Positions 3,860 through 55,472 of a DNA stretch of 64,000 nucleotides are shown here, in pieces; position 1 is the stretch's first letter; every line of letters starts with the position of its first letter. Source of the stretch: Amphiscolops sp. MND2022 (taxonomy: Eukaryota). The translations under genes were made by a program, and so were the position numbers. The DNA lies in NCBI GenBank assembly GCA_964187785.1, contig OZ076419.1, forward strand, positions 23,560,001-23,624,000, given 5' to 3'. The notes under the pieces are model-generated. The model was given only the letters and a program-made list of their open reading frames with translations, was not told the DNA's origin and searched no databases.

Positions 3860-3885
3860 GTGTTGTATTCTAAAAGCTAAGTTAA

Positions 3886-28238: not shown

Positions 28239-28878
28239 GGGCCGCTCTTATCGGGAAGTTGGCTCTGCCCGGGATTCGTAGTTGAGAGACGAGTATCGGA
28301 GTAGTAGCGGCTTTGTTTTCTCTCTTCTCCAGATCGTTCAGAGGGCTCACTGGTCGTACATCCACTTTCTTCAGCGTTCCAGGAGGAGTGACAAAGTAGG
28401 AGCTTGCGTCGTCTTCTCTTACTTGTTCCAGAAAATCTGCACTATAACTGCACTTGTTACTGATTGTGTACTGGCAGGTATATTACTTTCTACTATGAAT
28501 ACCCCTGAATTGTCATCTGTTTCACGTTCGCCACTATTTTCTAGTACATCAGGGCTTTCTGGGTTCTCTATTATTGCGCTGTGTGTGGTAATCTTTTGGG
28601 CTTAAAGATTCAAGACTCGAATCGAGTCTCATTCGTTTGCAGTTGGATTCCAACGAATCAGCAGAGATTTCAAATTATTCCTCCTCATCAACTAAAGCTC
28701 CGGTTGAGAAATGGGATACTTCTAGTACAATCCTGTAGTTTTCTTGATAATTCCTTGAGACAGTGGTAGACGTCATCTCCCTTTCTGTCATAACTTCTGT
28801 TTCTTCTTCTTCTTCTTCTTCTTCTTCTTCGGCAGAGGAGTTGTCCATGAGTTCATAAACATCTCTGATGTTGCTCAT
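28114..28878 (-). pseudogene. Acidic accessory sense ORF (poly-Glu N-terminus), broken by stops and frameshifts, reading into the 3' LTR
   Basis: ORF pieces 28675-28878 (MSNIRDVYELMDNSSAEEEEEEEEE, a (GAA)n run) and 28114-28365, which crosses the LTR edge at 28238 (..RAA|LLQPAPGLACGC). Same position as ORF 40679-41707 in the giant element. Confidence 0.55.
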
Positions 28879-29262
28879 TTTGTCGTCCTGCTGTCGCTTG
28901 TAATCTGATAGTTTGACAATGATTTTTAGGATTAATAAGGATTAGGGAGAATGGTAGGATAAATCCCTCCATTCTGATTGGTTTGTCAATCGTTTCAATC
29001 CTTTTTGAATCCTGAGTGTTGGCGTTATGCCAACGTCGGGTTTATATTGGCTGCAAAATGAATTAACCAAACTTGTCAACGTTACGTGACGTCAATTTCG
29101 TTGGTTTTAACTAACTTTATATTTGGCACCGTTTTGATGACGTCATTTTAGATTATAGGATTAATATTTTGATCCTGATAACCTTCTTGTCGACGTTATG
29201 CCGACGTCAATTTCGTTTGTTGTTTTCATCTTCGGTTTTGTTTTCAGATTTCTGCTATTTGA

Positions 29263-32190: not shown

Positions 32191-32216
32191 CCTGAAACTG
32201 GATAACTTTGAGTGTA

Positions 32217-32228
32217 TTGCTGTCACCA
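32217..32228 (-). other. Primer-binding site TGGTGACAGCAA
   Basis: Immediately follows the CA end of the 5' LTR on the minus strand. Its first 9 nt are shared with the PBS at 53821-53835. Confidence 0.75.
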
Positions 32229-34425
32229 TGTTACGACTACTACACGGGTCGTCGTTTTGGGTTGGATTTATTCTAACTGATCTTGTAGGGGTGTAAAAAC
32301 TAGTTTCATTTTCCTTTTCTTCGTCGCTTTTTTTTCTTATGCTTTCTGCTGTTTTAGGTTTCAACAGTTTCATCATTTCTTTCTGGGATTCAACAAAAAA
32401 ATTCTTGATTTGGGAGGTGATTTCCTCTTTCAAGGAATCTCTCAAACTTTCCAAGAAGCTACTACTGGCGACACAAAACCTTCACTAACGCTTTCAGTGC
32501 TCTCCTGTTGGTTGTTCCTTCTCTTTTGACTTCTTGTAGTCGACATTTTTAGATGAAGAGAGTTTGATTTGAAGAATTCAATTCATCTTTGCGATGTATT
32601 TTCAACAAAGTTGAAGAAATAGACTGAGACAAGTGAATTATAGCGCAACTGATTTTTACAAGTGCAAAAGGACTGAATCCCTCAATTATTCATAACCATC
32701 ATATATAAACACTCCTAGCATCATTTGATCACGAACAACTCTTTAATTTCCTTCGAACAATTAGTCATTTCCTGTATTTTTGGTGAAAAAATCATTACGA
32801 TGCCAAATTCGCGTCGACATTTTGTCAAATTTTAGGACACGGCAATTCTAAATTAGCATTAGTCATCAAATATGGTCCCATCATTTCATTCCGGCGTCCT
32901 TTTGTTTCCTCCCAAGCAGGAAGTAGATATTACTTCAGTCTGTCAAACCGGAAAAGATTCCCTGTTTTACTGCCTCGGTTCGCGGGAAATTGACGCTAAG
33001 ATGACGCTGACGTGAACAACTAATACCTGATTTTGATTTTCAACTTGACTAAAATGTGATGACTTATTTCCGAATTACGATTATTTGAACGAAGCTAGGA
33101 ATATATTCAAACAACTGGAAACGATGAACATTTGATTAAATACCAAAGTTTAATTTTTATGAACATTAACGCAGAAATTAACATCACATCACATTTCTAG
33201 CTTGACGCGACAATTGCGACAAGCTTCCAAAATTAACAAAGCGCTTCATTTTTATTAACAACCATTTGGTAATAATAATATAGTTAATTTAAAAATTAGC
33301 AGCGATAAACTTTCGTGGAAAACTTTATCACAGCTACAGTTATGGGACATATGTTTGGGGAATCAAGTATGAAAGTATAAATGTACAAAACTACATTTCT
33401 AGCACAAAATATACCCAATCCGTTTCATTTATGGATGTAAGCTGTGACCTTCATCTATACATTCACGAAAATTTCATTTTGGTTAAATTTTAAGGCTATT
33501 TCAAGTTATTGGCAATTTCTCTGACGGGAGGTTGACGTATGTTTTAAATACTATTTTCACTCTTCTAGTTAGGTTGATTGTGCCCTAAACATACCCTCTG
33601 AACCAAGTTCATCAGCACAATATCTATTTCAGCAATTTAGAGGGATTAGAATAGCTATTTCGGTGAATTTACTGCGTAGTCTTGGCGAGTTTTCCAAATT
33701 AGTTTGACGGATTTACTTGATTTATCTGATTCCATAAACTTGTCAACGTCACGTTGACGAGTTTTCTTGGCAGAACTGAGATTTTGACTAGTTTGACGCG
33801 GTGCTGACGAGTCTTTTAGATTGCCAGTGCTGTGACGTCATACTGGCGGAAAATTGGAATCATTTCTAGTAAGGCCATTAATACAGGCGGATAATCGGAA
33901 TGATTTTCTGGTATGGTTATTCTCACCGCTCCCCTTGTTTACTTAGCATAAAATTGTCAATCTAAATCATTCTAATTGCTTTTCAAGGGCAATTAATTAG
34001 CCTTATTTTGACGAGACGTAATTTCCCAACATGTATTTCAAAGTGGTTTTCATTTTAGATCTAGATGCGCTCTCTTTTTAGAGATAATTTAGTATCTGCT
34101 TTTCATTTTAGATTAGTCTATGATTTCGGTCTTAAGACGCAGTTTTGGTTTGACTTTCAGGTACCGGATTTTCTAATTTTGACGTGACAAAAACGTCCTG
34201 CCGGAATTTCGTGAAATCATTATGACTTAATTATTTCTTATTCTCATTTCTATTTGGGATTTGCGTATGATAGTCGTACGTTTTGTATCTCTAGTTAGTT
34301 TATTTTAAGTTAGTTTCAAGTTTACCAGTTAAATTACGACTTTGGAAATCTCAAATTACTTCCGTGGCCTCTTCCGATTCTCGGTCGTCGACAACCACAT
34401 GCCAGACCTGGAACGGGCTGTGACA
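32229..34425 (-). repeat. 5' LTR (2197 bp)
   Basis: Direct repeat of 25860-28238 with substitutions and indels, including a deletion of about 87 bp in the LTR-encoded gag segment near 32460. Confidence 0.9.
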
Positions 34426-36066: not shown

Positions 36067-36380
36067 TACTCAGCCTCCCTACTCAGCCTCCCTACTCAGC
36101 CTCCCTACTCAGCCTCCTTACTCAGCCTCCCTACTCTGCCTCCCTACTCTGCCTCCCTACTGAGAGGAGAAAATAATATCTAAAGTAAAAATGGGAATAA
36201 GATCTAAAGGGAGTAAGATCTAAAATTGCAGGACGGGAATAAGATCTATAGGAAATAAGATCTAAAATCACTAAATTTTAGATATTTTTTAGATCCTATT
36301 CTCCTCCCAAAATAGCTATGGCTCAGTTGGTGATAGCGAAAAGGGAGGAAAATATCCCGGTGCTTAGCGGGCGTCTTGTT
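36067..36380 (+). repeat. 13-bp minisatellite (TACTCAGCCTCCC x7, 36067-36161), repeated AATAAGATCTAA motifs and a HINE-like hairpin terminus
   Basis: Direct reading. The terminus CCCGGTGCTTAGCGGGCGTCTTGTT is shared with about 22800. The AATAAGATCTAA motifs also occur at 14524-14556. Confidence 0.6.
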
Positions 36381-37085: not shown

Positions 37086-37488
37086 TAATTTGGTATAAAA
37101 CGAGTATAAAAGTTCGGACCTGCGCCACCTCCTTTCAAAAACGCAGTATAGTCGGATATAAGGTCAAACGTTTGGATATAGCGTTTCTTTCCGAATATTA
37201 CGTAGGGGACTCCAATAAAATCGAAGAGGATCATTTGGAGACATAAAGTTTCGAAAAAAAAGTCTCACAGTGCCGAAAAAAAATTTGAAAGGGGGACCCT
37301 TTGGGATAGCTTAGATGCGTTTCTCAGTTATTCGTTTACTTGAACAAACTGAACAAAATTTTCGTCGCTTCGAGTCTGTCTCAAAAAAACGAGTGGCTAT
37401 AAAAGTCGGGCTCTTTTATATGAAAAAGCGCCGACTAAAACTAAAAAGTGGTAATAATGAAACAGATTCTGGTTGAGTGGTTACAACG

Positions 37489-40182
37489 TGTGTTACAACG
37501 TGGATATGAGTCACAGAATGTTGCGGTGGACCTATTTGAGTAGTCATCAGATGGTTATGAGTAGTTGTATCATTTGGTTGTTGAGTGTGCTAAATGGAGG
37601 TGATAGTAGCGGAGTTTCGAATAATTGAATTGGAGAGAACTTGAAGGTTGGTTAGTGATAGTTGGAAACGGTAAAGTGAAAAAATTGGGATGTGGATTGC
37701 TAATACCGTGTGTATAAATATGAATATGTGATAATCCTCTACCTCAAAGTCCTCCTCAGATATTAATGTTCTATCCAAGTTAGTTTCACTCCTATGAAAT
37801 GGTTTGGCTGGATGTCTAAGGTCTCTCATTTTAGAGGCTTGGAGAGGATAATCTTCGTCTTCTGAATCTATGTTCTCATTATAAGATGCGTGTACTCCAG
37901 TAGACTTGTTAGTTTTGGATCCCAAAGGTTGCATATTTTGTATTTCGTTCATTTCAGACCTTGGGTTTGTCACTGTAGATGCACTTTTGTTTGACTTTAT
38001 CTCTTTCAGAATTGCGTCTAGTTTATTTTCCATTTCTTCTCTCATTTTCGTAATTCTATCGTTGTTTTTCTGTTCGAAATTCTCAGTCCATGCCTGTATT
38101 TCATTGCTCAACTGGCTGGGTTCTATTAACTGAGATCTAAGTTCAAAATTATCTAAATCTCCTTGAATATTAGAATCAACATTAACTAAAGTATCATTAC
38201 CTTGAGGTGGTGTTTCTACTTGTACTTCAGTGAGTATTCTTTCGGGGGAAGGAGTTCCTAATCTGCTGGACCTTCTATTTCTTTTATTTCCCATCTGTCT
38301 CATTGTATTTGGTTGTTGGGGAAGAATTTGAATTTATTCAAGAGAATTATCCAAAGACAATTCAAGAAACGAAGCAAATGTTGATCATAACCGCTTTTAC
38401 AAAGATTGGGTTGAAATTTAAGCAACTGGTAGGTTGGGGGTTTCACATCACGAATGAATTGTCCTTTTAGTTTCACCCCACTCCTCAAGAAATATAAAGA
38501 ATGACAAGCATTTTTACTGATATCATTGACTAAAAGACTAAAAATAGGATAGCGTCAGAATTCCATCATTCTATTTATAATCATCAAGCAATGACATCAG
38601 GACGTCCTGGATATAATCAAGGGGCTCAAATGGTTCCTGGGGAAGCAATTCTGAACGATGTATGAAACGTTATTTATCAATATATAGATGATACATGACT
38701 GCAGAACATTCAAAAGATTATTGACAAAACCGCACAACTGAGTATATACGTTTTACCATGCTCCGCATAATAACGCGTAGCATTGTTTAGGAAAACGCAT
38801 AATTGCGTATATGCGTTAATGCTCAAAACGTACAGTGTGTTACAACGTGGATATGAGCCACAGAATGTTGCGGTGGACCTATTTGAGTAGTCATCAGATG
38901 GTTATGAGTAGTTGTATCATTTGGTTGTTGAGTGTGCTAAATGGAGGTGATAGTAGCGGAGTTTCGAATAATTGAATTGGAGAGAACTTGAAGGTTGGTT
39001 AGTGATAGTTGGAAACGGTAAAGTGAAAAAATTGGGATGTGGATTGCTAATACCGTGTGTATAAATATGAATATGTGATAATCCTCTACCTCAAAGTCCT
39101 CCTCAGATATTAATGTTCTATCCAAGTTAGTTTCACTCCTATGAAATGGTTTGGCTGGATGTCTAAGGTCTCTCATTTTAGAGGCTTGGAGAGGATAATC
39201 TTCGTCTTCTGAATCTATGTTCTCATTATAAGATGCGTGTACTCCAGTAGACTTGTTAGTTTTGGATCCCAAAGGTTGCATATTTTGTATTTCGTTCATT
39301 TCAGACCTTGGGTTTGTCACTGTAGATGCACTTTTGTTTGACTTTATCTCTTTCAGAATTGCGTCTAGTTTATTTTCCATTTCTTCTCTCATTTTCGTAA
39401 TTCTATCGTTGTTTTTCTGTTCGAAATTCTCAGTCCATGCCTGTATTTCATTGCTCAACTGGCTGGGTTCTATTAACTGAGATCTAAGTTCAAAATTATC
39501 TAAATCTCCTTGAATATTAGAATCAACATTAACTAAAGTATCATTACCTTGAGGTGGTGTTTCTACTTGTACTTCAGTGAGTATTCTTTCGGGGGAAGGA
39601 GTTCCTAATCTGCTGGACCTTCTATTTCTTTTATTTCCCATCTGTCTCATTGTATTTGGTTGTTGGGGAAGAATTTGAATTTATTCAAGAGAATTATCCA
39701 AAGACAATTCAAGAAACGAAGCAAATGTTGATCATAACCGCTTTTACAAAGATTGGGTTGAAATTTAAGCAACTGGTAGGTTGGGGGTTTCACATCACGA
39801 ATGAATTGTCCTTTTAGTTTCACCCCACTCCTCAAGAAATATAAAGAATGACAAGCATTTTTACTGATATCATTGACTAAAAGACTAAAAATAGGATAGC
39901 GTCAGAATTCCATCATTCTATTTATAATCATCAAGCAATGACATCAGGACGTCCTGGATATAATCAAGGGGCTCAAATGGTTCCTGGGGAAGCAATTCTG
40001 AACGATGTATGAAACGTTATTTATCAATATATAGATGATACATGACTGCAGAACATTCAAAAGATTATTGACAAAACCGCACAACTGAGTATATACGTTT
40101 TACCATGCTCCGCATAATAACGCGTAGCATTGTTTAGGAAAACGCATAATTGCGTATATGCGTTAATGCTCAAAACGTACAG
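37489..40182. repeat. 1347-bp tandem duplication spanning 238 bp of flank plus about 1109 bp of the 3' LTR
   Basis: The ORF pairs 37590/38937, 37906/39253 and 38300/39647 have identical translations and are offset by exactly 1347 bp. The junction at about 38835 has GTG microhomology. Confidence 0.95.
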
Positions 40183-40722
40183 TGACGTATAATCATATTA
40201 ACAAAATGTATGTTACCGCATAAGCGGATTATCTCAAAACGCATGTTGACGTATAGTTGAAAAACGCATGATACCGCATATGCATAACACCAGTTTACGC
40301 ATAATAACGTATACTTCAAATTCATTTTATGCTTTATTGCGTATACTCGTCACATCTTTTTACGTATAGTGACGTATTTTAGCAGTTGAAAAACGTCCAT
40401 TGACGCTTATTCATAGTTCTAATATCAGTATGATCACGAATAATGAAAACCAAAAATCGCGGATTAATCATGCTTATGTAATTTTCATCATATATTGCAT
40501 TTATGAATGGATTTGAAACAATCAGGGCAGTTCAAAAGGACTTAGGAAAAATTTCCAAAATGGAAAAACATCAATAAAGATAAACAAAGAGCTTACATAA
40601 CAGTACAAAAATATCGTTAAAACAAGTTTTGATGAAGTTTAAAATGTTTCTACATTGGGTTTCGTCAGGTGTTCTTTTTTACTGTTGCCCTACGGACCCA
40701 TCGCATCTCGAGGGATGCGACA
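39074..40722 (-). repeat. 3' LTR (1649 bp)
   Basis: Direct repeat of 53836-55472. It differs by a 20-bp insertion, an 8-bp deletion and scattered substitutions. Confidence 0.95.
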
Positions 40723-41707
40723 GTCTCGCATTTTTGAAAAGGAACAGCGCTGCCTCGAAACCATGGATGAATGCCCTGGATCGGATTGCCCTTTCCTTGA
40801 CCGTTTCACCCTCGTATTCCGTTGCAACCAAATACTCACCTAATGTCTCGAAAGCGATTTGGTCGTAACATTTTCCACAAATGTCACAGTAGCCAGCAAC
40901 ATTAGCCATTACTGAGGGTAAAGGCCTGATACTTTGTCTTTCATGCGCTGGTATGAGTATGAGGTTGGTACTGTGTGTGACGCTGAAGGGAAACCCTAGT
41001 TGTACTGCTGGCTGCGCTGGTTGTGGTACTTGAGGAGTTCCGTGAGAAGTCCAGCTCAGAGTGAGGGGAAATAGCATCGGTGACAAATTGAACCCTGAGG
41101 CGAGTCCAGGTACATTCTGCTGTAACTGATTAGGGTCATTCCAGACTCCTTGTTCCATCGGCTCATTCGCTTGTAGCTGCTGAAACTTTGTTAACTCGGG
41201 TCTGTGATTGGGCGGGTACATCGGCGTTGGCCGAGTTAGTATTCCTCTATCAATGGAACTTGTTCTTGGAGTTGGGGGAATCCTGGCTGTGGGGCGACCG
41301 TAACTGTTCGTCCTTGCGTCAGATTCATTTCCTATTGTCCATGGGAATAGATTTCCCTCTTCAAACTCGCTATCTATGAATGAAGTTGGGGAATTTTCTT
41401 GTTCCTGCTGAAGGTCTCCAATTAGCCCCATGAGATCTTTTTCCAATTGAGTTCCCAAGGCCACTGACACAGCATCATGTTCTAGAGTAGTATTCGTATT
41501 GGGGAACAGAGATGCCGTTGCTGCCCCCACGAAGGCAGACATCAAGCTACTTCCTGCTGGGTTTATCCTGAATCTCTCTTCTAGTTGGACGCGATCACCA
41601 GGTTGGATGGAAAAAGCGTCTTCGGATCCGCTTGATAAGTCCACCACATCAGGCGATATAGGAGAATACAGGCTATCTTCATCGATATTGAACTGGAGTT
41701 TGTCCAT
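40679..41707 (-). CDS. Accessory sense-strand ORF of unknown function (342 aa), with its stop codon inside the 3' LTR
   Basis: Uninterrupted ATG-to-TAA ORF with an acidic, S/P/Q-rich N-terminal two-thirds, a CDICGKC motif and a helical-looking C-terminus. No signal peptide or transmembrane segment. The last 14 codons lie in U3. Confidence 0.75.
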   Translation of the reverse strand: MDKLQFNIDEDSLYSPISPDVVDLSSGSEDAFSIQPGDRVQLEERFRINPAGSSLMSAFVGAATASLFPNTNTTLEHDAVSVALGTQLEKDLMGLIGDLQQEQENSPTSFIDSEFEEGNLFPWTIGNESDARTNSYGRPTARIPPTPRTSSIDRGILTRPTPMYPPNHRPELTKFQQLQANEPMEQGVWNDPNQLQQNVPGLASGFNLSPMLFPLTLSWTSHGTPQVPQPAQPAVQLGFPFSVTHSTNLILIPAHERQSIRPLPSVMANVAGYCDICGKCYDQIAFETLGEYLVATEYEGETVKERAIRSRAFIHGFEAALFLFKNARLSHPSRCDGSVGQQ

Positions 41708-42496
41708 TTTTTCACAATCACGGAGATTTATTTTAAGTTATGGGGTGTTTAGAAGTTTCAAGAGCGACTGAATTGCAAGTTTATGAAGACCATATGGTGA
41801 TGTTTCTTTCAGTCTTTTCCGTCTTTTGGAAAATTCCGCGGAAAAATTGGGTGTCATGCTTTCAGGGTTTAACAGTTTCCTTATAAGGGGGGTCATATGA
41901 TGCAGTCTGTTTAATTCATCAAAAACATTTTGATTCCCTTCGAAGGGGAATAAGCAAATCTTCACTTTAAGTGTTGTTATTTTCTTTTAAGGGAAGCCGC
42001 CATTTGACTCGAGCTCCTCGAAGGCGTTCGATTATTTCAATAGCACATAAACAAAATTATATCAGACTTAAAGGAGTTACATGACTCATAGTTAATATCA
42101 TTGATGAAGAAAATGAATGGGAAAAGATAATTATCCAAATTTTCATGACTTGACGTCTAATAATCTTAGAAAGGTCTTTATTCAAAGTTTGATCTTGTTT
42201 TTTGTGAAACTCAAAACATGCATTGACGTTGTTTTCATTTTAGTCCCTGTTAATTGATAAGTACGCATAGAATATGAAATGCAAAAGAGCATCGTTCCAA
42301 GTCTTGGCTTTCTATAGTAATATATTGTATAAATGTTCTTCGTCATGTTTATCAGTTATTGCATACGGTAGCTGGTTTTCACATCGTATTACGTAATCAC
42401 ATGCAATTCCCCAGCCGCTGCTATGCCACTGTCTTTGTAGGTCCGCATATTCTTGTGGATGCATGGATGGTGATTCCGTGTAGTGTCGTATGGCAT

Positions 42497-42676
42497 ATCT
42501 GCAACTCCGCATATTGCCGCTTATGCGTTTATAGTAGTTCCGCATAATACCGCATAGGTATATCAGCAATTCCGCATACTGCCGCATATGCGTTTATAGT
42601 AGTTCCGCATAATACCGCATAGGTATATCAGCAATTCCGCATACTGCCGCATATGCGTTTTTAGTAGTTCTGCATA
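42497..42676. repeat. Tandem array with a 65-bp unit (about 2.7 copies, 4 CCGCAT per unit) in the divergent spacer
   Basis: ATAGTAGTTC at 42531 and 42596, and the variant TTAGTAGTTC at 42661. Confidence 0.9.
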
Positions 42677-43097
42677 ACGCATTATATACTTTGGCATAAG
42701 ATTATATCTAATCTTCTGATGCTTGCCGGTTTCTCACTGTACAAAGTGACATTTTGCAAATGCCAATTACGTAATCAATCATACTGGCAGAGATGATTGA
42801 CACTTTGATTGACCAATCACATTAAAGTATTCTTTCAGCCCTTATCTCATCGTGCAAAACATTTGCTTTTTTGCCTTTTCTGAATACGCCACGCCTTTGT
42901 TGTATGTTGATCAACTTTAAAAATTCTCAATTTGTATTGTCATTTTCGTTAGATATATTTCATTGAAGTCAATTAGTCAGTTTATATTGTCTCACCAATT
43001 CTTCCTCTGGTTATCTACCCGTTTAAGTTCAGTGTCTAGTTTTCTGATTTCTCCACAACAATTGTCCATTCGTCTTTTGTATTCCTTACTCCCCATT

Positions 43098-46000
43098 ATG
43101 GATCAGCAAAGAAGGTCTCGATATCAATTTACTTCGCGACGGCAATCTTCATTCTGGGATAGCGATTCTCCTCCTGGCATCATTTCCAGTGAGTTCAACT
43201 TTCAGATTTTGTTTGAATTGTTTTCGATTTGATTGTCTTTCTGATCAGAAATTTAGATTGCATAGCTGGCCAGGCTAGCAAAACATGATTCAAAATTTTT
43301 GTTTCAATTCGAATTTTAGAGCTTTCGCACTCGATCTGTTTCTAAACGGAAGTCGCTCTGAAACAATTTCTACAGTATATCCGGTTTCATCCCTTTCTCG
43401 AACTTCCGATTACCAATTTGAACTTCCGTTTTTACACTTCAGTTGTTCGTTTGTTTCAGCTGAACCTGAGTCTCCTCAGAAAACACCGGAACAGTCACCA
43501 GAAAAGGTTTATACCCCTTTACGAGTCGCGTCGCCTACTCAGTTTCCACATTCTGGTACCCAATCGGCTGACATCTCTCCCGCAGCGTTAACAATCTGTG
43601 ATTCTGGAGCCGAAACTGAGAAGCTTCCAAATTGCGACGTTGTCTTGCCACTTCAAAGTACTTCCGCAATCATGATTGGTCAATCTCCCAGTAAAGCTGT
43701 CCATGCTGAACCGGATATTGAACCAAAGTCGCGGGTTGCCCAGGGTGAGTCTTTGTCACCTCGATTTTCCTCATTCCTAACCCGTGGAACCACGTTTGGG
43801 AGCTTGATTGGGAAAACCCAAATGGTCAATCCAGTCGACCCACCAGCCCCCCGCGAGGAGGGCAAAGTTAGGAAAGACCCGGCTCTTGTAGAGCAGGTAA
43901 TTTCCACGGCAGAAGGAGGTAGTCATCACGTCACTGTGACGAAACAGGAAATACTTGCCCTTACAAATGTTTTGAACAGGATCCCCCGTTCGTTTCTGAC
44001 AGGTGAAGGTACCTCTGGGGAACATGTTTCGCTAAATGTTGTCAACGACCCCCCAATTTCTCCAACTCGGCCTCTAGCAGGATCAAGTCGCGACACTGTT
44101 ACCACTAGTACTGGAGAGGAAACTAGATTGTGTTCTAGCGGGGAAGAAGTAGTTGTGCCTACCGGTAAACGTCAAAGACCCAAGTATTCCTTGAAGACAT
44201 CTATGTTACGAAAACATCCTGTTCTCCAATTTTCGGCAACTGGACCTATTGACCGTGAAAGGTCTCCATACAAATGGTGGTGCCGTGTCTGTCGCGTGGA
44301 GCTTTCGCTAATGAGCAGGGGCGTCTTAGAACTTTTGTCCCACTACCGAACGGAAGGCCACTTGGTGAGGGAACACCGCATACGGCTTGAAACACCTGGT
44401 GCCCCTCTATTTGATCAACATGAAAGCGAATTATTGGGAATTGCACTCCAAGAGGCTAAAAGGATAGCGAAGGAAATGTACCCAATTTCTCCTCAACTCG
44501 ATTCCTGCAAGCTGTTAGTTGGCCAAAAAAGATTACTTGACCTCACTTCAACCACTAGCCCCAGTGAGAGCATCATCGCTCAGATTAGCGTTCTTGAGCA
44601 TGGACTTCGCAATGGCGGTCACATCGATTGTTTCATTGGGATTTGGAACGAAATGGCGACCCACACATTGGGAACTTCAGAAGCCAGGAATTTTAGTTGG
44701 AATCACCCTCGTTTATTCGTAAGTGTTGTTTTTTCTTTTCATCACTGCGTAGGGTACTCACTGATTCCCCCTTTTAATCTATTTAGGCTATGGTGATCTA
44801 TATGTTCAGAGAGTTGCTGAATTACTGTGTTACTTCCATCTCGGTGTCCGGCTCCTATTCTTTATCAGTTCAGTACACTTCCACTCACAATTATGTGTAT
44901 GTGAATTTTTGGTCAGGAAGTGTATACTATCAGATATGTCTTGGCTCGGGGCCCAGAGGACTCTTAATCCCGAAGAAAATTCTCACAGTCATTTCTTCAT
45001 TCGTCACTTTGTTCGAGTCTGTTCCGTCTTGTATTAGTTAATTGATTGCAGTGCTAGACTAGAAGCTTGTTTGTTGTCGTCGCTCCCAGGACAAAAACTT
45101 CTCAGTGCTCTATGTAGTTTTGGCCCTACTGAATTCGAGAGGTGTTTGTCAGTCCCAACTTCCAAGATCCTTGAACGTCACGACTTCCGTACAATTCTCG
45201 ACTTTTTACTCATGAAACTGCGTACGGCCTTGGATAGAGACTGGGTTCATTTCTCCCTGTGCTTCACAAAGTAGTTCTACTCTTTTCTTTTTCTCAAGTT
45301 ATATTCTTGACCACAGATTCACTTTCAGTTTTGTTTAGAGTGTACTTAGTCTCGAATACTCTCTGCAGGAAGCTTCCAACCTAATCGAAATTCTGTCCAC
45401 TCATTGGGACAAAGTTATTGACCATTTAGACAAGATGTCACGATTGCCAGTTTTCCGCTTCCACATGCGAGAGGTAATTTCTTTTTTGCTTTTATAGTCA
45501 AAACACATATATGTATACATATGTATTCACTTATGTTAGATTGTTCTTCATATTTACACAGTTTCTTCATTCTAGCCCAGTCCACTGGACGAGTGTTTCC
45601 GGCTCGATACAGCTTATCTGGCGAGACTATTCGTAATCTGATGTGTAATCGACCATTGTTAGTAATCTGTTTCTTTTTGGAAAATTTTCCTTTTAATGTA
45701 CCGATGTGTTTCTTTTCAATTAAGGCCCAATATCACAATAGAACCTTAAAGTGGATTAGAACAAATCTTTTTCGTAATTTCCGACCTTTTACACGTGCTT
45801 CATATGTGAATTTCGAACTCAGATTGAATTTCACGCGTATAGAGGCAAAATCATAATTTCCGCATAATTGTGCATAAGCGTCGTCCCTCATTCCGCATGG
45901 TGACGCATAGTTGAATTTCCAATTCCGCATGGTTACGCATATACGTCACACCTCATTCCGCATGGTGACGTATAGTTGAATTTCCAATTCCGCATGATTA

Positions 46001-47668
46001 CGCATATGCATCATACCTCATTCCGCATGATGGCGTATAGTTGGATTTCCAATTCCGCATGATTTTGCATATGCATCATACCTCATTCCGCATGATGACG
46101 TGTAGTTGGATTACAGGACTCGTACAGTAATGTACAGGCGTGCTCTTGATATACGGTGACGTACAGTTTGAGACTAGTTCCCGCATAAAGACGCATATAC
46201 ACCGTACTGCCTTCCGCATAATGGTGTATACCCTGAAATTGGTTTCCGCATAGTGACGCATGTACACAACACTGCTTTCCGCATAATGGTGTATAGTATG
46301 AAATTGATTTCCGCATAGTGACGTATATACACTATTCTGACTTCCGCATAAGGGTGTATAATTGATTATACAATTTTGCATAATATCGTATGATCAGGTT
46401 CCCAATTCCGTATAAGTCCGTCTAATGAATATTAGACACGTGTTTTACCACAATGTGGTGCGTTTAAACATTCTTGGCTTTAAGTGTGAGTCATGTTGTG
46501 GTAACTTTTTAATCAATGGATCTTAGAATGGTAGAAGATCTGTTTGTATTGTACTTATTAATCTTTCTTGTGTTTAAGATTGCTCCGTGTTCTCTGAAGT
46601 GAGACAACAGTTTGGGAATGGGAATGTACAATCAGTTTGCGGTGTTTGTATATTCCCAACTCCAAAGTATTTTGCCCGATAACCTTCTGGGGGACATTTC
46701 GGATTGGGACAAATACCTAACACTGGATCTGAAGCGGACAGATCTTCCATTTAAAACACCCGAAGAGTTTATCCTCAACAGTGATTTCCACCAATTGGTA
46801 TTATCCAGCAAGTTGCCTCGGCCAGGAAAATTTGTCGAACAATCAATCGCCTTTTACAAAACCTTTTGTGGGATATTGTTGTCACACAAAATCGTTACAT
46901 CAGGCTTGATTCGCGGATTATCTTGTTTTGAAAGTCATTTTGGAAGCTACTGAAGAAAATTACATTTCCTGTATTGAACTGCTGACTACCCATTTTGTAG
47001 AGAAAGGGTGGATTTCTTCAAGTGAGAAAACAACAAGTGTGAGCCAGTACCGATCCCTTGTGGCTAATTTTCGATCGAGTGAAGTCACCGCTACAGAAGA
47101 TTGGTTTCACTTTTTATCTTCGCATTATGAGCTACAGAATCGGAATGAATTACACCGACTGTTCAAACTCGCTAGTCTTTGTTTGCCGCCTTTGGTCAAG
47201 ATACCAGTTCCCTTTGTTATCCCCATATCTGAGCTAGAAGGAGACGAGGAGGCGTTCAAGTCTCACATAAGTAGTGTGCAAATGTCTTACAGTTCTGTGC
47301 CAAATGTTTCAAGTTTGTATAGAGATCCCTGATCCATCAATCGTGTCTTCCGCTTACTGGGGAGAAGAACGAATTTGTTGTTGGACCGAAGATTCTCGGC
47401 TTGGAATTTCCTTAAAGGAAGTATCTCAAGGAGACAGTCTTTGCAGGTAAAGATGTAGACCGCCTACAAGAGTGCTGTTATTTCTGCTGATGACTTTTGT
47501 TACCCCAAGGACACCGAGTCTGCTGGAGGGAGTCGGTCGAGCAGTACCAGTTCTTGATCTCATGGGCCGCCTCTCAACAAAGCTACTCTGAGTGTACCAA
47601 GGTGTAGTGGTACTGCAGCAGTTCAGGAAGATCCAAAATCGAAAGGGAAGAAGAGCAAGAAAAACTAG
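43098..47668 (+). pseudogene. Antisense intron-containing zinc-finger, hAT-transposase-like gene or genes carried inside the retrotransposon; damaged in this copy
   Basis: Predicted exons 43098-43188, 43460-44718, 44787-about 45290, about 45340-45473, 45562-about 45631 and about 46600-47668. GT..AG introns 43189-43459, 44719-44786 and 45474-45561 keep the frame. Contains CRVC-x16-H-x5-H and a basic C-terminus KSKGKKSKKN. There are in-frame stops or frameshifts at about 45040, 46930, 47330, 47460 and 47555. Confidence 0.72.
45855..46410. repeat. Two adjacent TTCCGCAT-motif arrays, each with a 65-bp period
   Basis: CCTCATTCCGCAT at 45886, 45951, 46016 and 46081. TTCCGCATAA at 46212, 46277 and 46342. 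A second motif copy lies about half-way through each unit. Confidence 0.9.
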
Positions 47669-47840
47669 AAGGAGATCGATTCTTGCTCCTTGTTAACTTT
47701 TGTATTGTTGTTGAACTATTTGCTCATTTGTATTGTGTTTGTGCTTGCTTATTATCTGTTATAGTTGAAAAAAGCGAAAGAGACCAAGAAGAGAAAAGGT
47801 GAAAGTTTGAGAAAAGATAGTATTTCAATCTTTTCCGTTT

Positions 47841-49175
47841 TCAGTATCTGTAAGAGTCTGAGTAATTTGGGTTAGGGTTAGGACGTAAGTTGTATTTTTC
47901 AACACGAGTATTTATGGGTTTTTCTTGCAATGGGGTATTTTCGGAGTTTTCTGGGGTTTCTTGGGTTTGTATTTCTGGTGTATTTTCTTGTGGGGTTTTT
48001 TGGGAATTTTCTGCTTCATCATCATGGGTTTCTTGTGGAATTTCATTGTGGCTTGTTTTTTCACGTTCAGTGGACTGCTCCACTGGGCTCCCCCACCATT
48101 TTTTGGCAATGAGGGGGAGGGAGGGCGGCTATTTTCAGGTTCTTCGATAGGAACGTATTCAATATCCTCAGTGTGTTGTACATAATCCGGAGGATTAGCC
48201 TCGAATGGGTTGTGGCCAAAGTTTGTGTTCCATGATTGAGCATATAAGTCGTCATGCGCCACCGGCATTTGATCATCTTTTTGCCAATCGGTTTCTCGGA
48301 CAAAAATGTCAGCTAATGGTGCTTGCGGTGTAAATTTCTTTAAACGGATTCTGTGTAAGAGTTGCGTTTTGTTTGTCCCCAGTCTCCTAACTATGTAATT
48401 ATTATTAGGGAGTACTTTCTCAACTTTGTAAGGACCCTGCAATCTGAATTCCCGAAATGGTATTTTCGTAGCTTGTGTGTCAGCCTTCGGGTTTAAGATG
48501 TAGCAGTAGTCCGTTGTTTCTAATGGTGGTGCTTTTGCTTTCCGATCATAATAGGCTTTGTATTTAAGGTAAGACTGCATTATGTTCTTTTTGGTTTGGT
48601 CTAAGAGTATTCTCTTACGTCTCTGTATTTCTTCAGCCACATCTGTTTCGGGTGGATATTTTGGGTTGGGATTGTATCCTAATTTGTAATCTAGGATGTT
48701 GTGTGGTATGCGCCCATGAAAAACTCGTGAGGGATCGCAACCAAGTGATGCATGATAGGTTGTGTTATTGCACTAATACTGGCAACGGGAGAAATTTATG
48801 CCAATTATGTCGGAACTCTCCAGTTGCTGCTTTGAGCTGCGTTTTTACTGAAGCATGGGTTCTTTCCAAGAGTCCTATTGTCTGAGCATGTTTCATTGTT
48901 GCATGTTTAAGCTCAACACCTAGGACAGCTGTAACTTCATGGGTTACTTGGGCAATAAATTGTGTGCCAAGATCTGTGATGATTGTTGTTGGAAGGTAGG
49001 TATGTTTGCATAGGATGCCCATTATGACTCGAGCCACTGATGTTGCAGTGATGCGAGCTACTGGGTAAGCAAACAGGTATCGTGAGAAAACGTCGATTGC
49101 TGTTAATATATGATCGTAGCCACCACTGGGTGCGAGATTATGTAAGATGTCCATTTAGAGGATATCTTCAGGACC
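47841..49175 (-). pseudogene. pol: Integrase core and C-terminal tail of pol, disrupted
   Basis: AIDVFSRYLFAYP, ITDLGTQF and ERTHASVKTQLK (DDE) in 48765-49154. GPY/F-like GPYKVEKVLPNNNY in 47912-48640. The true end KYNLRPNPNPNYSDSYRY* is in 47841-48083. Stops and frameshifts lie between the pieces. Confidence 0.9.
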
Positions 49176-52100
49176 TAGGTCCCATTCGGGGCAATTGAGT
49201 AGTTCGGTTCTGAGGAGGTCATTGTTGATCTTTTGGTTTGAATGCAAGTTTGGCAGTCACTGACCCATTTTTTAATGTATTTTGCAATACAAGGGTAGTA
49301 ATATTTCTGTCGAGTTTCTTGTATCATCTTTGTAATGCCTGGATGATTCGAGTTGTGACCATGTGAGGCTTGAAGTAGTTCTTCAAGGAGTTGCGTTGGG
49401 AGTAGAATCTGGTAATGCGAAGTGGTCCCTGTGTCTGTGTAGTATTTGCGGGTCAGAACCTCTTGCTTGATTTCGATTCTTGTAATGTTTTGTAGATAAT
49501 GGTGATATCTGTAGTCAGATGCTAAGTCGTTTTCGTCAAAGGGGTTTCCTTCTATTTTGGCTCGCAAGTTTCTGAGAACTGTGTCATTGTTTTGTTCAAG
49601 TCTAATCCTTGCATTATCGCGGAAATATCCTTCAGAACAGGTGTTGAGACCTGATGTAGGTTTGTGGAAATGTTGGAGTTCCGTGACGTTATTTTCTGGT
49701 TCATTGTGGGTTTCAGTTTGAGCCTGATGTATAATATTTTGCTTTTCTTCCCAAAGCTTATTTTCGTCAAATTCCTCGTCGGGAAGAATGTAGATCTGTT
49801 CTTCTTCTACTATACCTGATGATTGTATGTTGACTTCGATGGCTCTCGTTTGAATGTCGTTACGTATGCTCATTTCGAGTTTCTCGACTTGGTTAATTTC
49901 TGTTCTGGACAGAAAGTCCGCTGCGGTATTCATTGAACCAGCTACATGGGCAATGACAAAATTGTATTGCAATACATAATCGCATGCGTTCCAGAGCGCT
50001 GGAGGGATGAGTTTTGCTTGGAAGAAGCGGGTAACTGACCTGTTGTCTGTGAAAACTATGACTGGAAAAGTGCTACCCCACATGAGGTGTCCAAACTCAA
50101 CGAAAGCAAAGTAAAAAGAAAGAAATTCTTTTGCATATATAGACAGTTTCGTTTGTGTTGGATTAAATGTTTTAGAGCCAAATGCAATTGATGCATATGT
50201 TTTACGCTTGGACTGGAGTTTTTGGTTAGGATCATCTTCTATCATGATAGCATATCCTGCAGCTGTAAAGGTTGCATCAGACATGACTATGAGTTGTTTA
50301 TCTTTGAGAGGTTGTCTCAGGGCTAATTGGCATGAGTTTTCAAGAAGTTTGTTGAGGTTGGTGAAATCTTCGACCAAATTAGTGGGTATATAGATTTTGG
50401 AGGTTTCTTTAAGAAGTTTGAAGAATGGAGAAAGACGTTCAGAGAGTCTCGGGATGTAATTGCGGTAATAGTTTAGAAATCCTATATACCTTTGAAGTGC
50501 TTTTTTGGATTTGGGGACTCTCAAATTCGACAAGAAATCTTTGACTTTGTCAGCTTGAGGTGCCACGCCGGCGGGTGTAATTGTTCGACCTAGGAAGTCG
50601 ACTTGTTTGACTCCGAAGTGGCATTTGGACATTGTGAGTTTAAGACCTGCATTTCTGATGCATTCGAAAACTGTCCTAATGTTGGCACATAGCTGTTTTG
50701 CATCGTTCGCTGCTATGCCGATGTCATCGATATATTGTGCACATTGATCAGCTTTGATTGCTCTGTCAAGGTACTCTCTCATGAAGCTTGAAAAAACCGA
50801 TAGAGATCTGCTAAGACCTTGGGCAAGTTGTCGGTAGGCGAAGGTTCGGCTTGCGAAGTTGAAGGCAAGCATCTGGATGGATTGGTAATCGGCCATTTGA
50901 AGGCAGTGGTAAGCTTGGGAGCAGTCTAATTTGCAGAAAAGTTTTTTGCCTGCCATAAGTTGTGCTGCGTCCGATAGTGTGCTTACCGGGTGGTTGTTGT
51001 TGATGTAGTCTTCGGTGATTAAGTTGTTGATTTTCCGGAGGTCCACTAGGAGTCTGAGTCGTCCGTTTGGTTTGCGTTGCGCAAAAATTGGACTAGCGTA
51101 TTTAGAAAAGGGTAGTGTTGTTATGATTCCATATTTATGTAGAAGTGCCAGTTCGACTGTAATGTCATCTTTGAGATTGATTGGTGTTGGCAAACTTTGG
51201 CTATATGCTGGTCTATCATCGTTTGGTGTGAGTTTGACCATAAATTCACGATTGGTGCCAATGTCGAATCGGTGTCTGGCAAAAATGTCGTGAAATTCGA
51301 TGAGAATTTCTTCGATTTGGTTCCGCTCATCGGTGTTGAGAGTTGTATCGGTCCAGTCAAAATTTGAAAGGAATGATTGTCTTGATTCTTCATTATCTTG
51401 GGGATTAAGTTGTTCGAGTTGTTTCAGTTCGAGGAGTTCGTTGTAGATCCGCTGTTGGATTGGGGTATATGTTGTAGGATCACCTGGGTCGTTTCGTGTT
51501 GGGAACCAATAGGATTCTTGATCATGGTCTTGGGAAGGAACTTTCAGAAGCTCGTTTATATAGATTTCAGTTGTATCTTCATGTTGGATCATGAATGATA
51601 ACATTGCTGGGTCGACAGGTTGTATGTGCTTGATTTGTTCTGGTGTGAGGATTTTGAAGTCTGCTAAATGGGTGTCGCAGAATATTGTATATGGAAATTC
51701 TGAGAAGTTGACTACCTGATAGCCGATAGCATTATTGTTGACCGTGCTTAATGATGATGTGATGAAAAAGCTGTCGTGACTTTCGAATTGTGGTGAAGGT
51801 GTGACTATTCCTGTTGCATCATGGTCTAACAGGTGATGCATTCTGCTTGCTATGGCGAGAGTTTCGCCTGGTTGTAGTGTGTATGTATTTTCAGCATACA
51901 AAGGCGTTGCTTGACGCAATGGTACTTGCATGTCTGGTTTTAGTTGCATTGAAAGGTATGGAAAAGTTAAGATGCCTTGTGTGACATCAAAAACTGCATT
52001 GTTTCTGCGCAGGAAGCAGAGACCTATGAGTGGGTTTGGGAGATTTTTCATGATGATGAAGTTTTCTCGTAACATGAAATCAGCCACTTCAAATTCAAGA

Positions 52101-52723
52101 AGTTCTGTACCAATTGGTACTTCTAATTGACCATTGGCCACCATAATTTGGAAATTTGGCGGTGGGCCAGTGACTTTTATTGCTTCATTGGCAAGTAATT
52201 TGATTTTGTTAAGATCTTGTTCAGAAATGGCACTTGTCAGGGCTCCTGTGTCAATGCGTCCATCAAGTGTGAGTCTTTCGAAGTCCATTGGCATATAGTA
52301 CATGTGACGTTTTCGTTTCAATGTTAGCGAGGTTGACATAGGTAGGTATGACAGGTTGCGTTCCTGATCAAACTGTATGTGGTTTGCGATGTCTTCATCT
52401 AGAAGGGGTTGTTTTTGTTCCTTGCAAGAAGAGGTACTCGGGAGGTGGTTTTGTGGTGGGTTAGCTGTAAGTTCGGGAGAGTTTTGGATGTTGTCTGAGA
52501 AATACTTGTCGGGAGCATCTCTCATAAGTTCATAATACGATTCTTGTGTGGGTTCATTGTTGTCTGAGTTAGTAGATGTTTGTGGGTTGTAGTCTGGTTC
52601 TGTGGTTAGTTGTTTGAGTTGTATGTTTACTGTTTCCACTTGACGCTGCCAGTCGTCTTGTGGTTGTGAAGTTTTTATTTTTTGGGCGTATTGATTATTA
52701 AGTCGTGGCGTTTCTAGTTTAAA
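49175..52723 (-). CDS. pol: Pol polyprotein: aspartic protease, RT, RNase H and integrase HHCC zinc finger
   Basis: DTGA (PR); LLVDLRKIN, KLDCSQAYH and YIDD (RT); VMSDA, EF, TDNRS and ADFLSR (RH); H-x6-H...C-x2-C (IN). 1154-aa ORF that stays open upstream to the slippery site and is frameshifted near 49190. Confidence 0.95.
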   Translation of the reverse strand, partial: FKLETPRLNNQYAQKIKTSQPQDDWQRQVETVNIQLKQLTTEPDYNPQTSTNSDNNEPTQESYYELMRDAPDKYFSDNIQNSPELTANPPQNHLPSTSSCKEQKQPLLDEDIANHIQFDQERNLSYLPMSTSLTLKRKRHMYYMPMDFERLTLDGRIDTGALTSAISEQDLNKIKLLANEAIKVTGPPPNFQIMVANGQLEVPIGTELLEFEVADFMLRENFIIMKNLPNPLIGLCFLRRNNAVFDVTQGILTFPYLSMQLKPDMQVPLRQATPLYAENTYTLQPGETLAIASRMHHLLDHDATGIVTPSPQFESHDSFFITSSLSTVNNNAIGYQVVNFSEFPYTIFCDTHLADFKILTPEQIKHIQPVDPAMLSFMIQHEDTTEIYINELLKVPSQDHDQESYWFPTRNDPGDPTTYTPIQQRIYNELLELKQLEQLNPQDNEESRQSFLSNFDWTDTTLNTDERNQIEEILIEFHDIFARHRFDIGTNREFMVKLTPNDDRPAYSQSLPTPINLKDDITVELALLHKYGIITTLPFSKYASPIFAQRKPNGRLRLLVDLRKINNLITEDYINNNHPVSTLSDAAQLMAGKKLFCKLDCSQAYHCLQMADYQSIQMLAFNFASRTFAYRQLAQGLSRSLSVFSSFMREYLDRAIKADQCAQYIDDIGIAANDAKQLCANIRTVFECIRNAGLKLTMSKCHFGVKQVDFLGRTITPAGVAPQADKVKDFLSNLRVPKSKKALQRYIGFLNYYRNYIPRLSERLSPFFKLLKETSKIYIPTNLVEDFTNLNKLLENSCQLALRQPLKDKQLIVMSDATFTAAGYAIMIEDDPNQKLQSKRKTYASIAFGSKTFNPTQTKLSIYAKEFLSFYFAFVEFGHLMWGSTFPVIVFTDNRSVTRFFQAKLIPPALWNACDYVLQYNFVIAHVAGSMNTAADFLSRTEINQVEKLEMSIRNDIQTRAIEVNIQSSGIVEEEQIYILPDEEFDENKLWEEKQNIIHQAQTETHNEPENNVTELQHFHKPTSGLNTCSEGYFRDNARIRLEQNNDTVLRNLRAKIEGNPFDENDLASDYRYHHYLQNITRIEIKQEVLTRKYYTDTGTTSHYQILLPTQLLEELLQASHGHNSNHPGITKMIQETRQKYYYPCIAKYIKKWVSDCQTCIQTKRSTMTSSEPNYSIAPNGT

Positions 52724-54403
52724 TCCTTGGAGGAGGATTGTTGAGGTCGTTCTAGTTTTGGTTTTATGGGTTTTCGGGCTTGTTTGTAAGCTTCGATGAC
52801 TTTCTTTTGAGCTTCAGTGAGATTCAACTTCGGCCGGCGGTTTTCCATGTTGGCACCGAAGTAGCAGTTTTCTTCTTCATGTCCGGGTGTGTTGCAATTT
52901 TGGCATTTTTCTGCGTCCGGATCTTCGTCAAGTTTACGCCGTTTTGCTAGTTTGGGGCAATCAGTCATCATATGTCCTGTCTCTTTGCAATAACGGCATT
53001 GGTCATTTTTGAGTGTTTTGTTAGGTACTGTTTTTTGAGTCTGAGTTTTAGACTTTTCGGTTTGTTTTTTAGTTGCTTTTTCAGCATTTTGTTCTTTTTT
53101 AGTGACGGTCATTTGGGTTTTGAGTGACGGCCCGTCTGCCTCCAAACCGTTTAGTTCCATCTCCCTCTCGAGGTGTTTTACGATCTGGTCGTAAGTTCCA
53201 TTCTCGAGATAGTCTTGGTTGATGGACTTTTTGAGGTGGGGGGGGGCATTTTTGCATAGAGTAAGATTTCTATCATCTGATATGCGTTGTCCCCGAATGC
53301 TTTTTCGGCACTTCTTGAAGTTCCTCTAAGAAATCCGGTAGCTTTTGGTTTTCGGGATCAAAGAAAAGTCTATTGAATCTGTGTTTTGCCGAAGCGCTAG
53401 ATTCTGGTTTGACATATTTTCTGCGGAAGACTTTTAAGATGTCTTCTAGTGTTGTAGATGGTGTTCGTTGTATGTTTTTGAAAGTTTTCAGAGCCAAACC
53501 TCTGAGGTGTGCGTGAAAATGGTTAGTTTTCATTTCTTCAGTTAGATTCGGCTGCATGCGAAGCGTTGTATGGAACAAGTTTTTGAAGTATTCGAATTTC
53601 TCATTTTTCTCATTTTTTCCATTGAAAGTCAATGTGTTTTTCGGATGAAACAGTGATTGTGGTGCATTTTTGTTTGCTAGTTTCTCTATTGCTTGGGCAA
53701 TTTGGTTTACTGGGTCAGAAGGTGTTTCTGTCATAGTTGACGTTTGTCTGTCTGCATGGGATCCGATAGTATCATTTAACGAGTGAGGATTGTGAGAACT
53801 TTGTCTATGGAGTTGTTTGTTGGCTCCTGTCACCATGTGATAATCCTCTACCTCAAAGTCCTCCTCAGATATTAATGTTCTATCCAAGTTAGTTTCACTC
53901 CTATGAAATGGTTTGGCTGGATGTCTAAGGTCTCTCATTTTAGAGGCTTGGAGAGGATAATCTTCGTCTTCTGAATCTATGTTCTCATTATAAGATGCGT
54001 GTACTCCAGTAGACTTGTTAGTTTTGGATTCCGAAGGTTGCATATTTTGTATTTCGTTCATTTCAGACCTTGGGTTTGTCACTGTAGATGCACTTTTGTT
54101 CGACTTTATCTCTTTCAGAATTGCGTCTAGTTTTTTTTTCATTTCTTCTCTCATTTTCGTAATTCTATCGTTGTTTTTCTGTTCGAAATTCTCAATCCAT
54201 GCCTGTATTTCATTGCTCAACTGGCTGGGTTCTATTAGCTGAGATCTAAGTTCAAAATTATCTAAATCTCCTTGAATATTAGAATCAACATTAACTAAAG
54301 TATCATTACCTTGAGGTGGTGTTTCTACTTGTACTTCAGTGAGACTTCTTTCGGGGGAAGGAGTTGCTAATCTCCTGGACCTTCTATTTCTTTTATTTAC
54401 CAT
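52714..54403 (-). CDS. gag: Gag starting inside the 5' LTR, with one frameshift near 53310 and two CCHC zinc knuckles
   Basis: ORF 53273-54412 continues as ..AEKAFGDNAYQMIEILLYAKMPPHLKKSINQ.. into 52714-53160, which has CRYCKETGHMMTDC and CQNCNTPGHEEENC. Confidence 0.9.
52717..52723 (-). promoter_or_regulatory. -1 ribosomal frameshift slippery heptamer U UUA AAC at the gag-pol junction
   Basis: Gag ends GAT TTA AAC TAG. The -1 frame (TTT AAA CTA GAA..) is open and continuous with the pol ORF. Confidence 0.8.
53821..53835 (-). other. Primer-binding site TGGTGACAGGAGCCA (tRNA-Leu-like)
   Basis: Directly after the CA end of the 5' LTR. Resembles the complement of the tRNA-Leu(CAG) 3' end, TGGTGTCAGGAG (11/12). 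Confidence 0.75.
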
Positions 54404-55472
54404 CTGTCTCAAGTGAAAATTGTATTTGGTTGTTGGGGAAGAATTTGAATTTATTCAAGAGAATTATCCAAAGACAATTCAAGAAACGAAGCAAATGTTG
54501 ATCATAACCGCTTTTACAAAGATTGGGTTGAAAATTAAGCAACTGGTAGGTTGGGGGTTTCAAATCACGAATGTATTCTCCTTCCAGTTTCACCCCACTC
54601 CTCAAGAAATATATAGAATGACAAGCATTTTTACTGATATCATTGACTAAAAGCCTAAAAATAGGATAGCGTCACAATTCCATCATTCTATTTATAATCA
54701 TCAAGGGATATAATCAAGGGGTTCAAATGGTTCCTGTGGAAGCAATTCTAAACGATGTATGAAACGTTATTTATCAATATATAGATGATACATGACTGCA
54801 GAACATTCAAAAGATTATTGACTAAACCGCACAACTGAGTATATACGTTTTACCTTGCTCCGCATAATAACGCGTAGCATTGTTTAGGAAAACGCATAAT
54901 TGCGTATATGCGTTAATGCTCAAAACGTACAGTGACGTATAATCGTATTAACAAAATGTATATTACTGCATAAGCGGATTATCTCAAAACGCATGTTGAC
55001 GTATAGTTGAAAAACGCATAATACCGCATATGCATAACACCAGTTTACGCATAATAACGTATACTTCAAATTCATTTTATGCTTAATTGCGTATACTCGT
55101 CACATCTTTTCACGTATAGTGACGCATTTTAGCAGTTGAAAAACGTCCATTGACGCTTATTCATAGTTCTAATATCAGTATGATCACGTATAATGAAAAA
55201 CAAAAATCGCGGATTAATCATGCTTATGTAATGTTCATCATATATTGCATCTATGAATGGATTTGAAACAATCAGGGCAGTTCAAAAGGACTTAGGAAAT
55301 ATTTCCAAAATGGAAAAACATCAATAAAGATAAACAAATAGCTTACATGACAGTACAAAAATATCGTTAAAACAAGTTTTGATGAAGTTTAAAATGTTTC
55401 TACATTGGGTTTCGTCAGGTGTTCCTTTTTACTGTTGCCCTACGGACCCATCGCATCTCGAGGGATGCGACA
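53836..55472 (-). repeat. 5' LTR (1637 bp)
   Basis: Starts TGTCGCATCCC and ends GATTATCACA on the minus strand, followed by the PBS. Confidence 0.95.

Follow-up and report, generated by a model that had tools for sequence, protein, structure and literature searches.

In a 64,000-nucleotide window of the genome of Amphiscolops sp. MND2022 (GenBank assembly GCA_964187785.1, contig OZ076419.1, positions 23,560,001 to 23,624,000 of the forward strand; all positions below are those of the window), three tandem arrays with a 65-bp period lie inside a Ty3/Gypsy long terminal repeat (LTR) retrotransposon, here called element A, which also carries an antisense gene of probable hAT-transposase ancestry. 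Judged from their sequences, the arrays are diverged copies of one ancestral 65-bp dimer and not three convergent solutions. We propose, with a probability of roughly 0.45, that the element's own transposase-derived antisense protein binds the array sites as an oligomer and regulates its family, working, by analogy, like VANC or TnpA. With the 65-bp coincidence accounted for by descent, the unusual feature of this locus is the presence of LTR-derived arrays together with a transposase-like gene in a retrotransposon.

Three tandem arrays of one ancestral dimer

Tandem Repeats Finder gave a period of 65 bp at 42495-42677 (94% matches), 45858-46112 (88%) and 46177-46360 (83%), confirming the period that the initial annotation of this DNA had assigned to all three places. 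Array I (42441..42699, + strand), situated between the divergent ORF-X and antisense gene, contains five intact monomers (42505-42667) with decayed edges, and its units are 95% identical. Array II (45858..46117, + strand) holds eight intact monomers, equivalent to four 65-bp units with 84% mean identity, and array III (46179..46437, + strand) holds six (to 46373; 75% mean unit identity), followed by two decayed monomers. A decayed 29+32-bp (61-bp) unit (46118..46178, + strand; register set by eye) connects arrays II and III into a single array.

The intact monomers comprise ten 33-mers and nine 32-mers, all on a single strand and in strict 33/32 alternation (19/19), in agreement with the motif recurrence every 32-33 bp that had been reported initially. 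The core TTCCGCAT is present in 17 copies on the + strand and none on the - strand of the window, all 17 of them within the three arrays, compared with a mean of 1.6 and a maximum of 5 copies (both strands) in 30 Markov simulations of the window. In each monomer, TTCCGCAT is followed by four variable bases, then by another CGCAT-like site, 10 bp past the first, and by a linker, with positions 3-8, 15 and 18 invariant in 19/19. An inverted half-site at positions 19-23 (at most one mismatch), which creates a quasi-palindrome, distinguishes the two monomer types, occurring in all ten internal 33-mers and in none of the nine 32-mers, and in the related LTR array described below in 4/5 33-type vs 0/5 32-type units; this pattern was picked post hoc after viewing the data, and the array copies are non-independent. 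Each 65-bp dimer carries five CGCAT-type half-sites, arranged as pairs 10 bp apart plus the quasi-palindrome in the 33-mer only. The contrast previously drawn between CCGCAT and TGACG is not clean, since seven monomers in arrays II and III contain TGACG. As for the suggested spacing of about three helical turns, 32.5 bp does correspond to 3.1 turns at 10.5 bp/turn, but the 65-bp unit comes to 6.19 turns, hence the sites lose phase along the array and strict helical phasing across it is rejected.

In-phase identity between the arrays is 0.61 (I-II), 0.54 (I-III) and 0.62 (II-III), and outside each monomer's two conserved boxes it is 0.32-0.42 vs 0.26 expected by chance. The arrays had been described as differing in unit sequence, which holds for the linkers, near chance identity, but not for the units as a whole, which are homologous. 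For arrays I and III, a swapped register scores 0.56 vs 0.54 in phase, so the register rests on the palindrome and not on overall identity. A position weight matrix built from the internal monomers matches only the arrays and LTR sequence of element A. There, a looser 33/32 array occupies the presumed U3 of the 3' LTR (40108..40423, + strand), ~180-500 bp upstream of a TATA-like box, and the same array is found in the 5' LTR (54858..55173). Its units measure 32, 33, 31, 33, 25, 33, 32, 33, 31 and 33 bp, and the exact period claimed initially for the three arrays does not extend to this variable array (25-33 bp). Array II aligns with the LTR stretch at 67% identity over 167 bp (E 2e-10 with only the LTR as target). 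This alignment and the matrix matches together indicate that the arrays were copied from one ancestral dimer, common descent being the reason for the shared 65-bp period; independent convergence on 65 bp is rejected, the units being homologous across the arrays and the LTR copy. A higher-order spacing, seen as a 187-bp period in the LTR array (40108-40423) and in arrays II-III as a 191-bp offset, may be due to chance; the nucleosome repeat length is near 187-191 bp.

An antisense gene of probable hAT ancestry

The antisense gene (+ strand) is apparently spliced, and homologues and splice-site motifs support the earlier placement of arrays II-III within one of its introns. Its open exon (43279..44718) encodes a low-complexity N-terminus and a C-x2-C...H-x5-H finger (~44281-44361), with a predicted local distance difference test (pLDDT) score of 88.5 for the model. 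The middle exons (44787..45661), which carry a frameshift near 45036 and one stop in this copy, would encode an RNase H-like part and then a helical part; their boundaries, with introns of ~65-90 bp, were placed using tblastn of relatives and splice motifs. A long intron of ~800 bp (45774..46578; the donor may instead be 45662) would hold arrays II-III, and the last exon (46579..47670), which in this copy has stops and, near 46934, a frameshift, resembles a hAT C-terminus. The relatives P0264 and P0273 match the window from 46615 on and P0263 from 46598, their N-termini diverging upstream of the last exon.

For the finger exon we found 233 relatives as 50%-identity clusters (E<=0.001), for the middle exons 80 and for the last exon 13 (49-92% identity). 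The ten finger-exon relatives looked up are all unnamed ENA records, and the zinc ligands of the finger are conserved among relatives. No longer homologue of the finger exon was present among 346 candidates, and no related DNA was detected in metagenome contigs (protein and array-pattern queries), viral contigs or prokaryote genomes.

Converging weak signals and the domain order make hAT-transposase ancestry of the antisense protein probable. A zf-BED match was obtained in 3/54 members, above cut-off in one relative (P0074), and the weak fold matches of the finger region (E about 2.5) include ZBED1, Hermes and TUT4. The relative P0136 has the finger and the middle part in one frame, and its second half (residues 278-369) was modelled as an RNase H-like core, which follows the finger and a helical domain. 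By Atlas language-model features, its nearest neighbours are unnamed eukaryotic clusters (0.95, 0.93), followed by hAT-type clusters (0.90-0.93). Foldseek on the P0136 core returned Hermes at ranks 2, 5, 7 and 8 (E about 0.01); VIA-align returned generic RNase H-like and actin-like folds, the best with Z 7.8 (root-mean-square deviation (rmsd) 3.3, 86 aligned), and Hermes was absent among the 50 VIA-align matches listed. The RNase H-like fold is common to many non-hAT proteins. The last exon gave a Dimer_Tnp_hAT lead at 0.88 in Atlas and no Pfam match in 13 members, and PDB sequence searches with A3 and A4 gave no match.

The catalytic acids (DDE triad) have apparently been lost from the antisense protein: a conserved acid is lacking both where strand 4 ends (in 67 sequences) and ahead of the last exon's invariant RVF (in 13 sequences), and strand 1 of the RNase H-like core has a variable E/D. 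The positions compared are those assumed from the general hAT motifs and not from a structural superposition. A homodimer prediction scored 0.22 vs a mark of 0.32.

A candidate reader of the arrays

In the proposed mechanism, one ancestral 65-bp dimer of putative half-sites in the LTR promoter region would have been re-amplified in the intergenic region and the intron. The reader of the arrays would be the antisense product, with its BED-like finger and transposase scaffold kept and its catalytic acids apparently lost, and several fingers of an oligomer could engage the half-sites 10 bp apart and the quasi-palindrome. Binding of this kind would favour retention of the 33+32 geometry, and its output may be, by analogy, a control of transcription specific to the family, by which the LTR and accessory genes are activated or escape silencing. 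Invariant cores, linkers close to random and a fixed geometry do give the arrays the look of DNA with multiple protein-binding sites. Moreover, the motif is limited to three non-coding compartments of element A, namely LTR, intergenic region and intron, which argues for recognition by the element's own protein, as with VANC sites (PMC5735166). The initial annotation had named the element's zinc-finger protein as the candidate binder, by analogy with hAT subterminal repeats. The hAT-like protein tightens that analogy, but the sequence-independent spacing attached to it does not stand.

The test of unit length illustrates this last point. Over the 19 intact monomers, parsimony requires at least 80 substitutions and 0 length changes. 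At the local indel rate, estimated at 12 indels per 222 substitutions from both LTR pairs of the window, 4.3 length changes are expected (P0 0.013), and 2.2 at the lower bound (P0 0.11); for 5/26 unit pairs compared between arrays, the best alignment has compensating gaps. The test left out seven decayed edge monomers. The local 33+32 geometry is probably favoured, and an extra constraint on unit length, beyond descent, is only suggested. The claim that spacing is constrained independently of sequence is not upheld, the period following from descent and the deficit of length changes being borderline over this range of P0.

Several findings weigh against binding by the antisense protein. The shared period is what descent predicts in any case, and the length test falls to the higher P0 at the lower indel bound. 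Length or inner spacing is altered in 4/7 decayed edge monomers, and 3/5 LTR 32-type units are off length (31, 25 and 31 bp; two events), with registers set by eye; once the decayed edge and LTR units are included, the indel deficit vanishes. The helical phase drifts by ~69 degrees per 65-bp unit along the array. The hAT calls are individually weak. The window's own antisense open reading frames lack a Pfam match, a different C2H2 model was found in 6/54 members vs zf-BED in 3/54, and the best VIA-align match of the finger region is the RNA-binding TUT4 (Z 4.5, rmsd 3.1, 64 aligned). The RNase H-like model comes from the relative P0136 (mean pLDDT 54) and not from the window copy, and its top Foldseek match is an NTPDase, with none at E<=0.001. 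Neither LTR pair of the window has a CpG-transition excess, which makes a methylation-based anti-silencing role doubtful. Lastly, only two families can be compared. Element B (25860..34425, - strand; target-site duplication (TSD) TATGT), an LTR element without gag-pol and with 2.2-2.4-kb LTRs, carries between these LTRs, in the same orientation, a truncated gene, distantly homologous to the antisense gene, with a diverged finger, yet has no 65-bp periodic array, although the gene copy stops short of the region corresponding to the intron array. In favour of the proposal, motif and finger both differ between elements A and B, and TGACG is the top motif of the element B LTR (13 vs 1.7 expected).

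Alternative explanations

Instead, a host transcription factor, or the product of the sense ORF-X, might bind the dimer as an LTR enhancer that was copied internally to drive the accessory genes, the antisense protein doing something else. The looser copy upstream of the TATA-like box in the LTR fits such an enhancer, as does the position of array I between two divergent genes, and repeated enhancers in U3 are common; TGACG, a bZIP-type half-site, is present in the arrays and dominant in the element B LTR. We nevertheless consider this credible but unlikely, as it leaves unexplained both the retention of a transposase-like DNA-binding scaffold in many families and the location of the tightest array within the antisense gene's intron. 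Rather unlikely, in our assessment, is a purely passive expansion, in which internal copies of LTR repeats were amplified again through slippage or unequal exchange, so that the period reflects ancestry and homogenisation and has little present function. The common descent of the arrays is clear, the 95% identity of the array I units points to recent duplication, and edge decay with length changes, the inclusion of which removes the indel deficit, is typical of homogenised arrays. Plant Retand elements, too, commonly carry tandem arrays, the function of which is unknown, between pol and the 3' LTR (PMC11963269). Neutral drift, however, does not predict linkers near chance between arrays alongside monomer positions that are invariant in 19/19, and the units of arrays II and III have diverged by 16% and 25%, far above the LTR pair of element A (41 substitutions in 1626 bp), which implies that they lasted through many rounds of replication. 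Reverse transcription tends to eliminate direct repeats, a background point absent from the literature passages checked.

Two further readings fare worse than binding by the antisense protein. The RNA packaging or dimerisation signal offered as an alternative in the initial annotation, to which export may be added, could be read by the finger as a matrin-type RNA-binding module: the arrays are included in the genomic RNA, the H-x5-H spacing and TUT4 as best VIA-align match are compatible with RNA binding, and the 33-mer palindrome could pair between RNAs. This becomes very unlikely given that RNA folding is not in excess (z -0.52 and -0.32), on which ground structured RNA is rejected, that the arrays have no Rfam match, that the module also stands at a DNA-level position in the presumed U3 upstream of the TATA-like box, and that the 10-bp site spacing suits duplex DNA. 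The hAT-like protein and the repeats near its 5' end would also be expected if a hAT DNA transposon were nested in this copy, with the arrays as its subterminal repeats. But none of 74 candidate inverted pairs around the antisense gene has an 8-bp flanking duplication, arrays II-III lie inside the gene, the same module occurs in the LTRs, and a homologous gene stands in the same orientation between the element B LTRs; a nested hAT element with terminal inverted repeats (TIRs) is largely refuted and extremely unlikely.

Architecture of the host element and its surroundings

Element A spans 16.4 kb (39074..55472, - strand) and has TG...CA ends, a 5-bp TSD (GAATA) and a primer-binding site (PBS), as expected of an LTR retrotransposon. 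Its LTR pair is 95.8% identical over 1659 bp. Pfam matches on the minus strand comprise reverse transcriptase, RNase H, integrase, protease and a zinc knuckle, and gag, protease, reverse transcriptase, RNase H and integrase follow the Ty3/Gypsy order. In the 3' LTR (39074..40722, - strand), we infer a promoter from the position of the TATA-like TATAAATA (39919-39926), and AATAAA occurs near 39680 on the minus strand. The 5' LTR (53836..55472, - strand) is adjoined by the PBS TGGTGACAGG (53824-53835), the start of which, TGGTGACAG, is common to elements A and B. The gag-pol region (47912..54454, - strand) has frameshifts in this copy, and its gag frame starts ~600 bp inside the 5' LTR and continues through the PBS, so that gag-like coding sequence is present in both LTRs (53836-54454, 39074-39680). 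Part of the 3' LTR and its flank is included in a 1347-bp tandem duplication (37488-40184; 99.9% identical), which either arose very recently or is an artefact of assembly.

Between pol and the 3' LTR, element A holds the antisense gene and the sense ORF-X, with array I separating these divergent genes. ORF-X (40679..41737, - strand; 352 aa) is acidic and P/Q-rich with a C-terminal cysteine motif, has no Pfam match above cut-off and no convincing match in element B, and is a second candidate regulator. It ends within the 3' LTR, extending into it in place of a clear polypurine tract, and the polypurine tract test found just a short purine-rich run ahead of this LTR. Element B likewise has a sense frame running into its LTR, with no detectable similarity to ORF-X. 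The protein P0182 matches both the element B middle exon (31244-31696) and a pol stretch of element A (51015-51113) at 97%, which suggests a nested or chimeric copy elsewhere.

Elsewhere in the window, a fragment at 21690-22800 shares 69% identity with element A's gag-in-LTR part and has scattered TGACGCAT-like sites and no array; it is possibly the solo LTR of a third family. Short repeats dispersed in either orientation (3882-4100, 4634-4825, 20877-21299, 37113-37419 and 56671-57288) are probably non-autonomous DNA elements, and minisatellites of 12 bp and 13 bp lie at 23964-24032 and 36067-36161.

Comparison with known systems

A tentative and on balance doubtful extension of our proposal is that a hAT transposase and its short binding repeats were co-opted by a Gypsy lineage and lost the cutting function, finger and motif forming a family-specific lock and key. 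In this reading, the finger of each family would recognise a motif of its own, arrayed in fixed 33+32 geometry in LTR, intergenic region and intron, and would thereby activate or protect the family's copies. If true, a class II end-recognition machine has been domesticated by a class I element and has diversified over many families, and transposon-encoded sequence-specific regulation extends from plant DNA transposons to retrotransposons. The antisense genes and tandem arrays found between pol and the 3' LTR are described as of unknown origin and function in PMC11963269, and here both origins can be traced, that of the array to LTR repeats and that of the gene probably to a hAT transposase. 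The 233 finger-exon clusters constitute a family in which a protein-DNA code could be read.

The literature searched, whose scope lay outside Repbase, most subscription journals and supplements, contained no precedent for an LTR retrotransposon with a hAT-derived antisense gene, and the arrangement is not described in the passages of PMC6431247, PMC7264820, PMC12859917, PMC6338049 and PMC12789967. In layout, element A matches Retand, a plant Tat-type Gypsy element with a lengthy stretch from pol to the 3' LTR, an antisense gene whose product is predicted to bind DNA, tandem arrays specific to each family and non-autonomous derivatives (PMC11963269). Retand differs in its TRP28 domain, its restriction to flowering plants and, according to the same paper, the lack of similarity of its gene to known transposons, whereas element A has inferred introns, a hAT-like architecture and an array homologous to the LTR's own repeats. 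Our Pfam scans gave no TRP28 (PF04195) match, and we do not claim membership of the Retand lineage.

The closest functional parallels come from DNA transposons, and the proposed mechanism would resemble that of VANC or TnpA, with element A belonging to neither system. Hermes, a hAT element, shares with the present system a BED-like finger, an RNase H-like scaffold and a quasi-palindrome with directly repeated short sites, and its BED domains bind cooperatively on a quasi-palindrome with exact phasing, a 1-bp shift not being tolerated (PMC10368747). The Hermes sites (AAGT), however, lie beside TIRs and serve cutting, whereas here there are no TIRs, the motif is another one, the periodic sites are internal or in LTRs, and the catalytic residues are apparently absent. 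In the Arabidopsis VANDAL elements, VANC is likewise an element-encoded protein with family-specific motifs, and its sites occur as tandem repeats of a short motif in introns, intergenic and terminal regions (PMC5735166); in element A, the same three types of region carry tandemly amplified copies of the motif. VANDAL elements are DNA transposons in which binding is proven and VANC acts on DNA methylation, whereas here binding is predicted and the LTR pairs carry no CpG-transition signature. Transposases can also turn into regulators by losing catalysis and acting on cognate copies, according to a recent preprint (bioRxiv 10.64898/2026.08.24.746577), the main text of which does not contain 'LTR' or 'retrotransposon' as whole words. 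Spm TnpA and the other transposase-derived regulators treated there either remain within DNA transposons or have undergone domestication by the host, whereas the carrier here is a retrotransposon.

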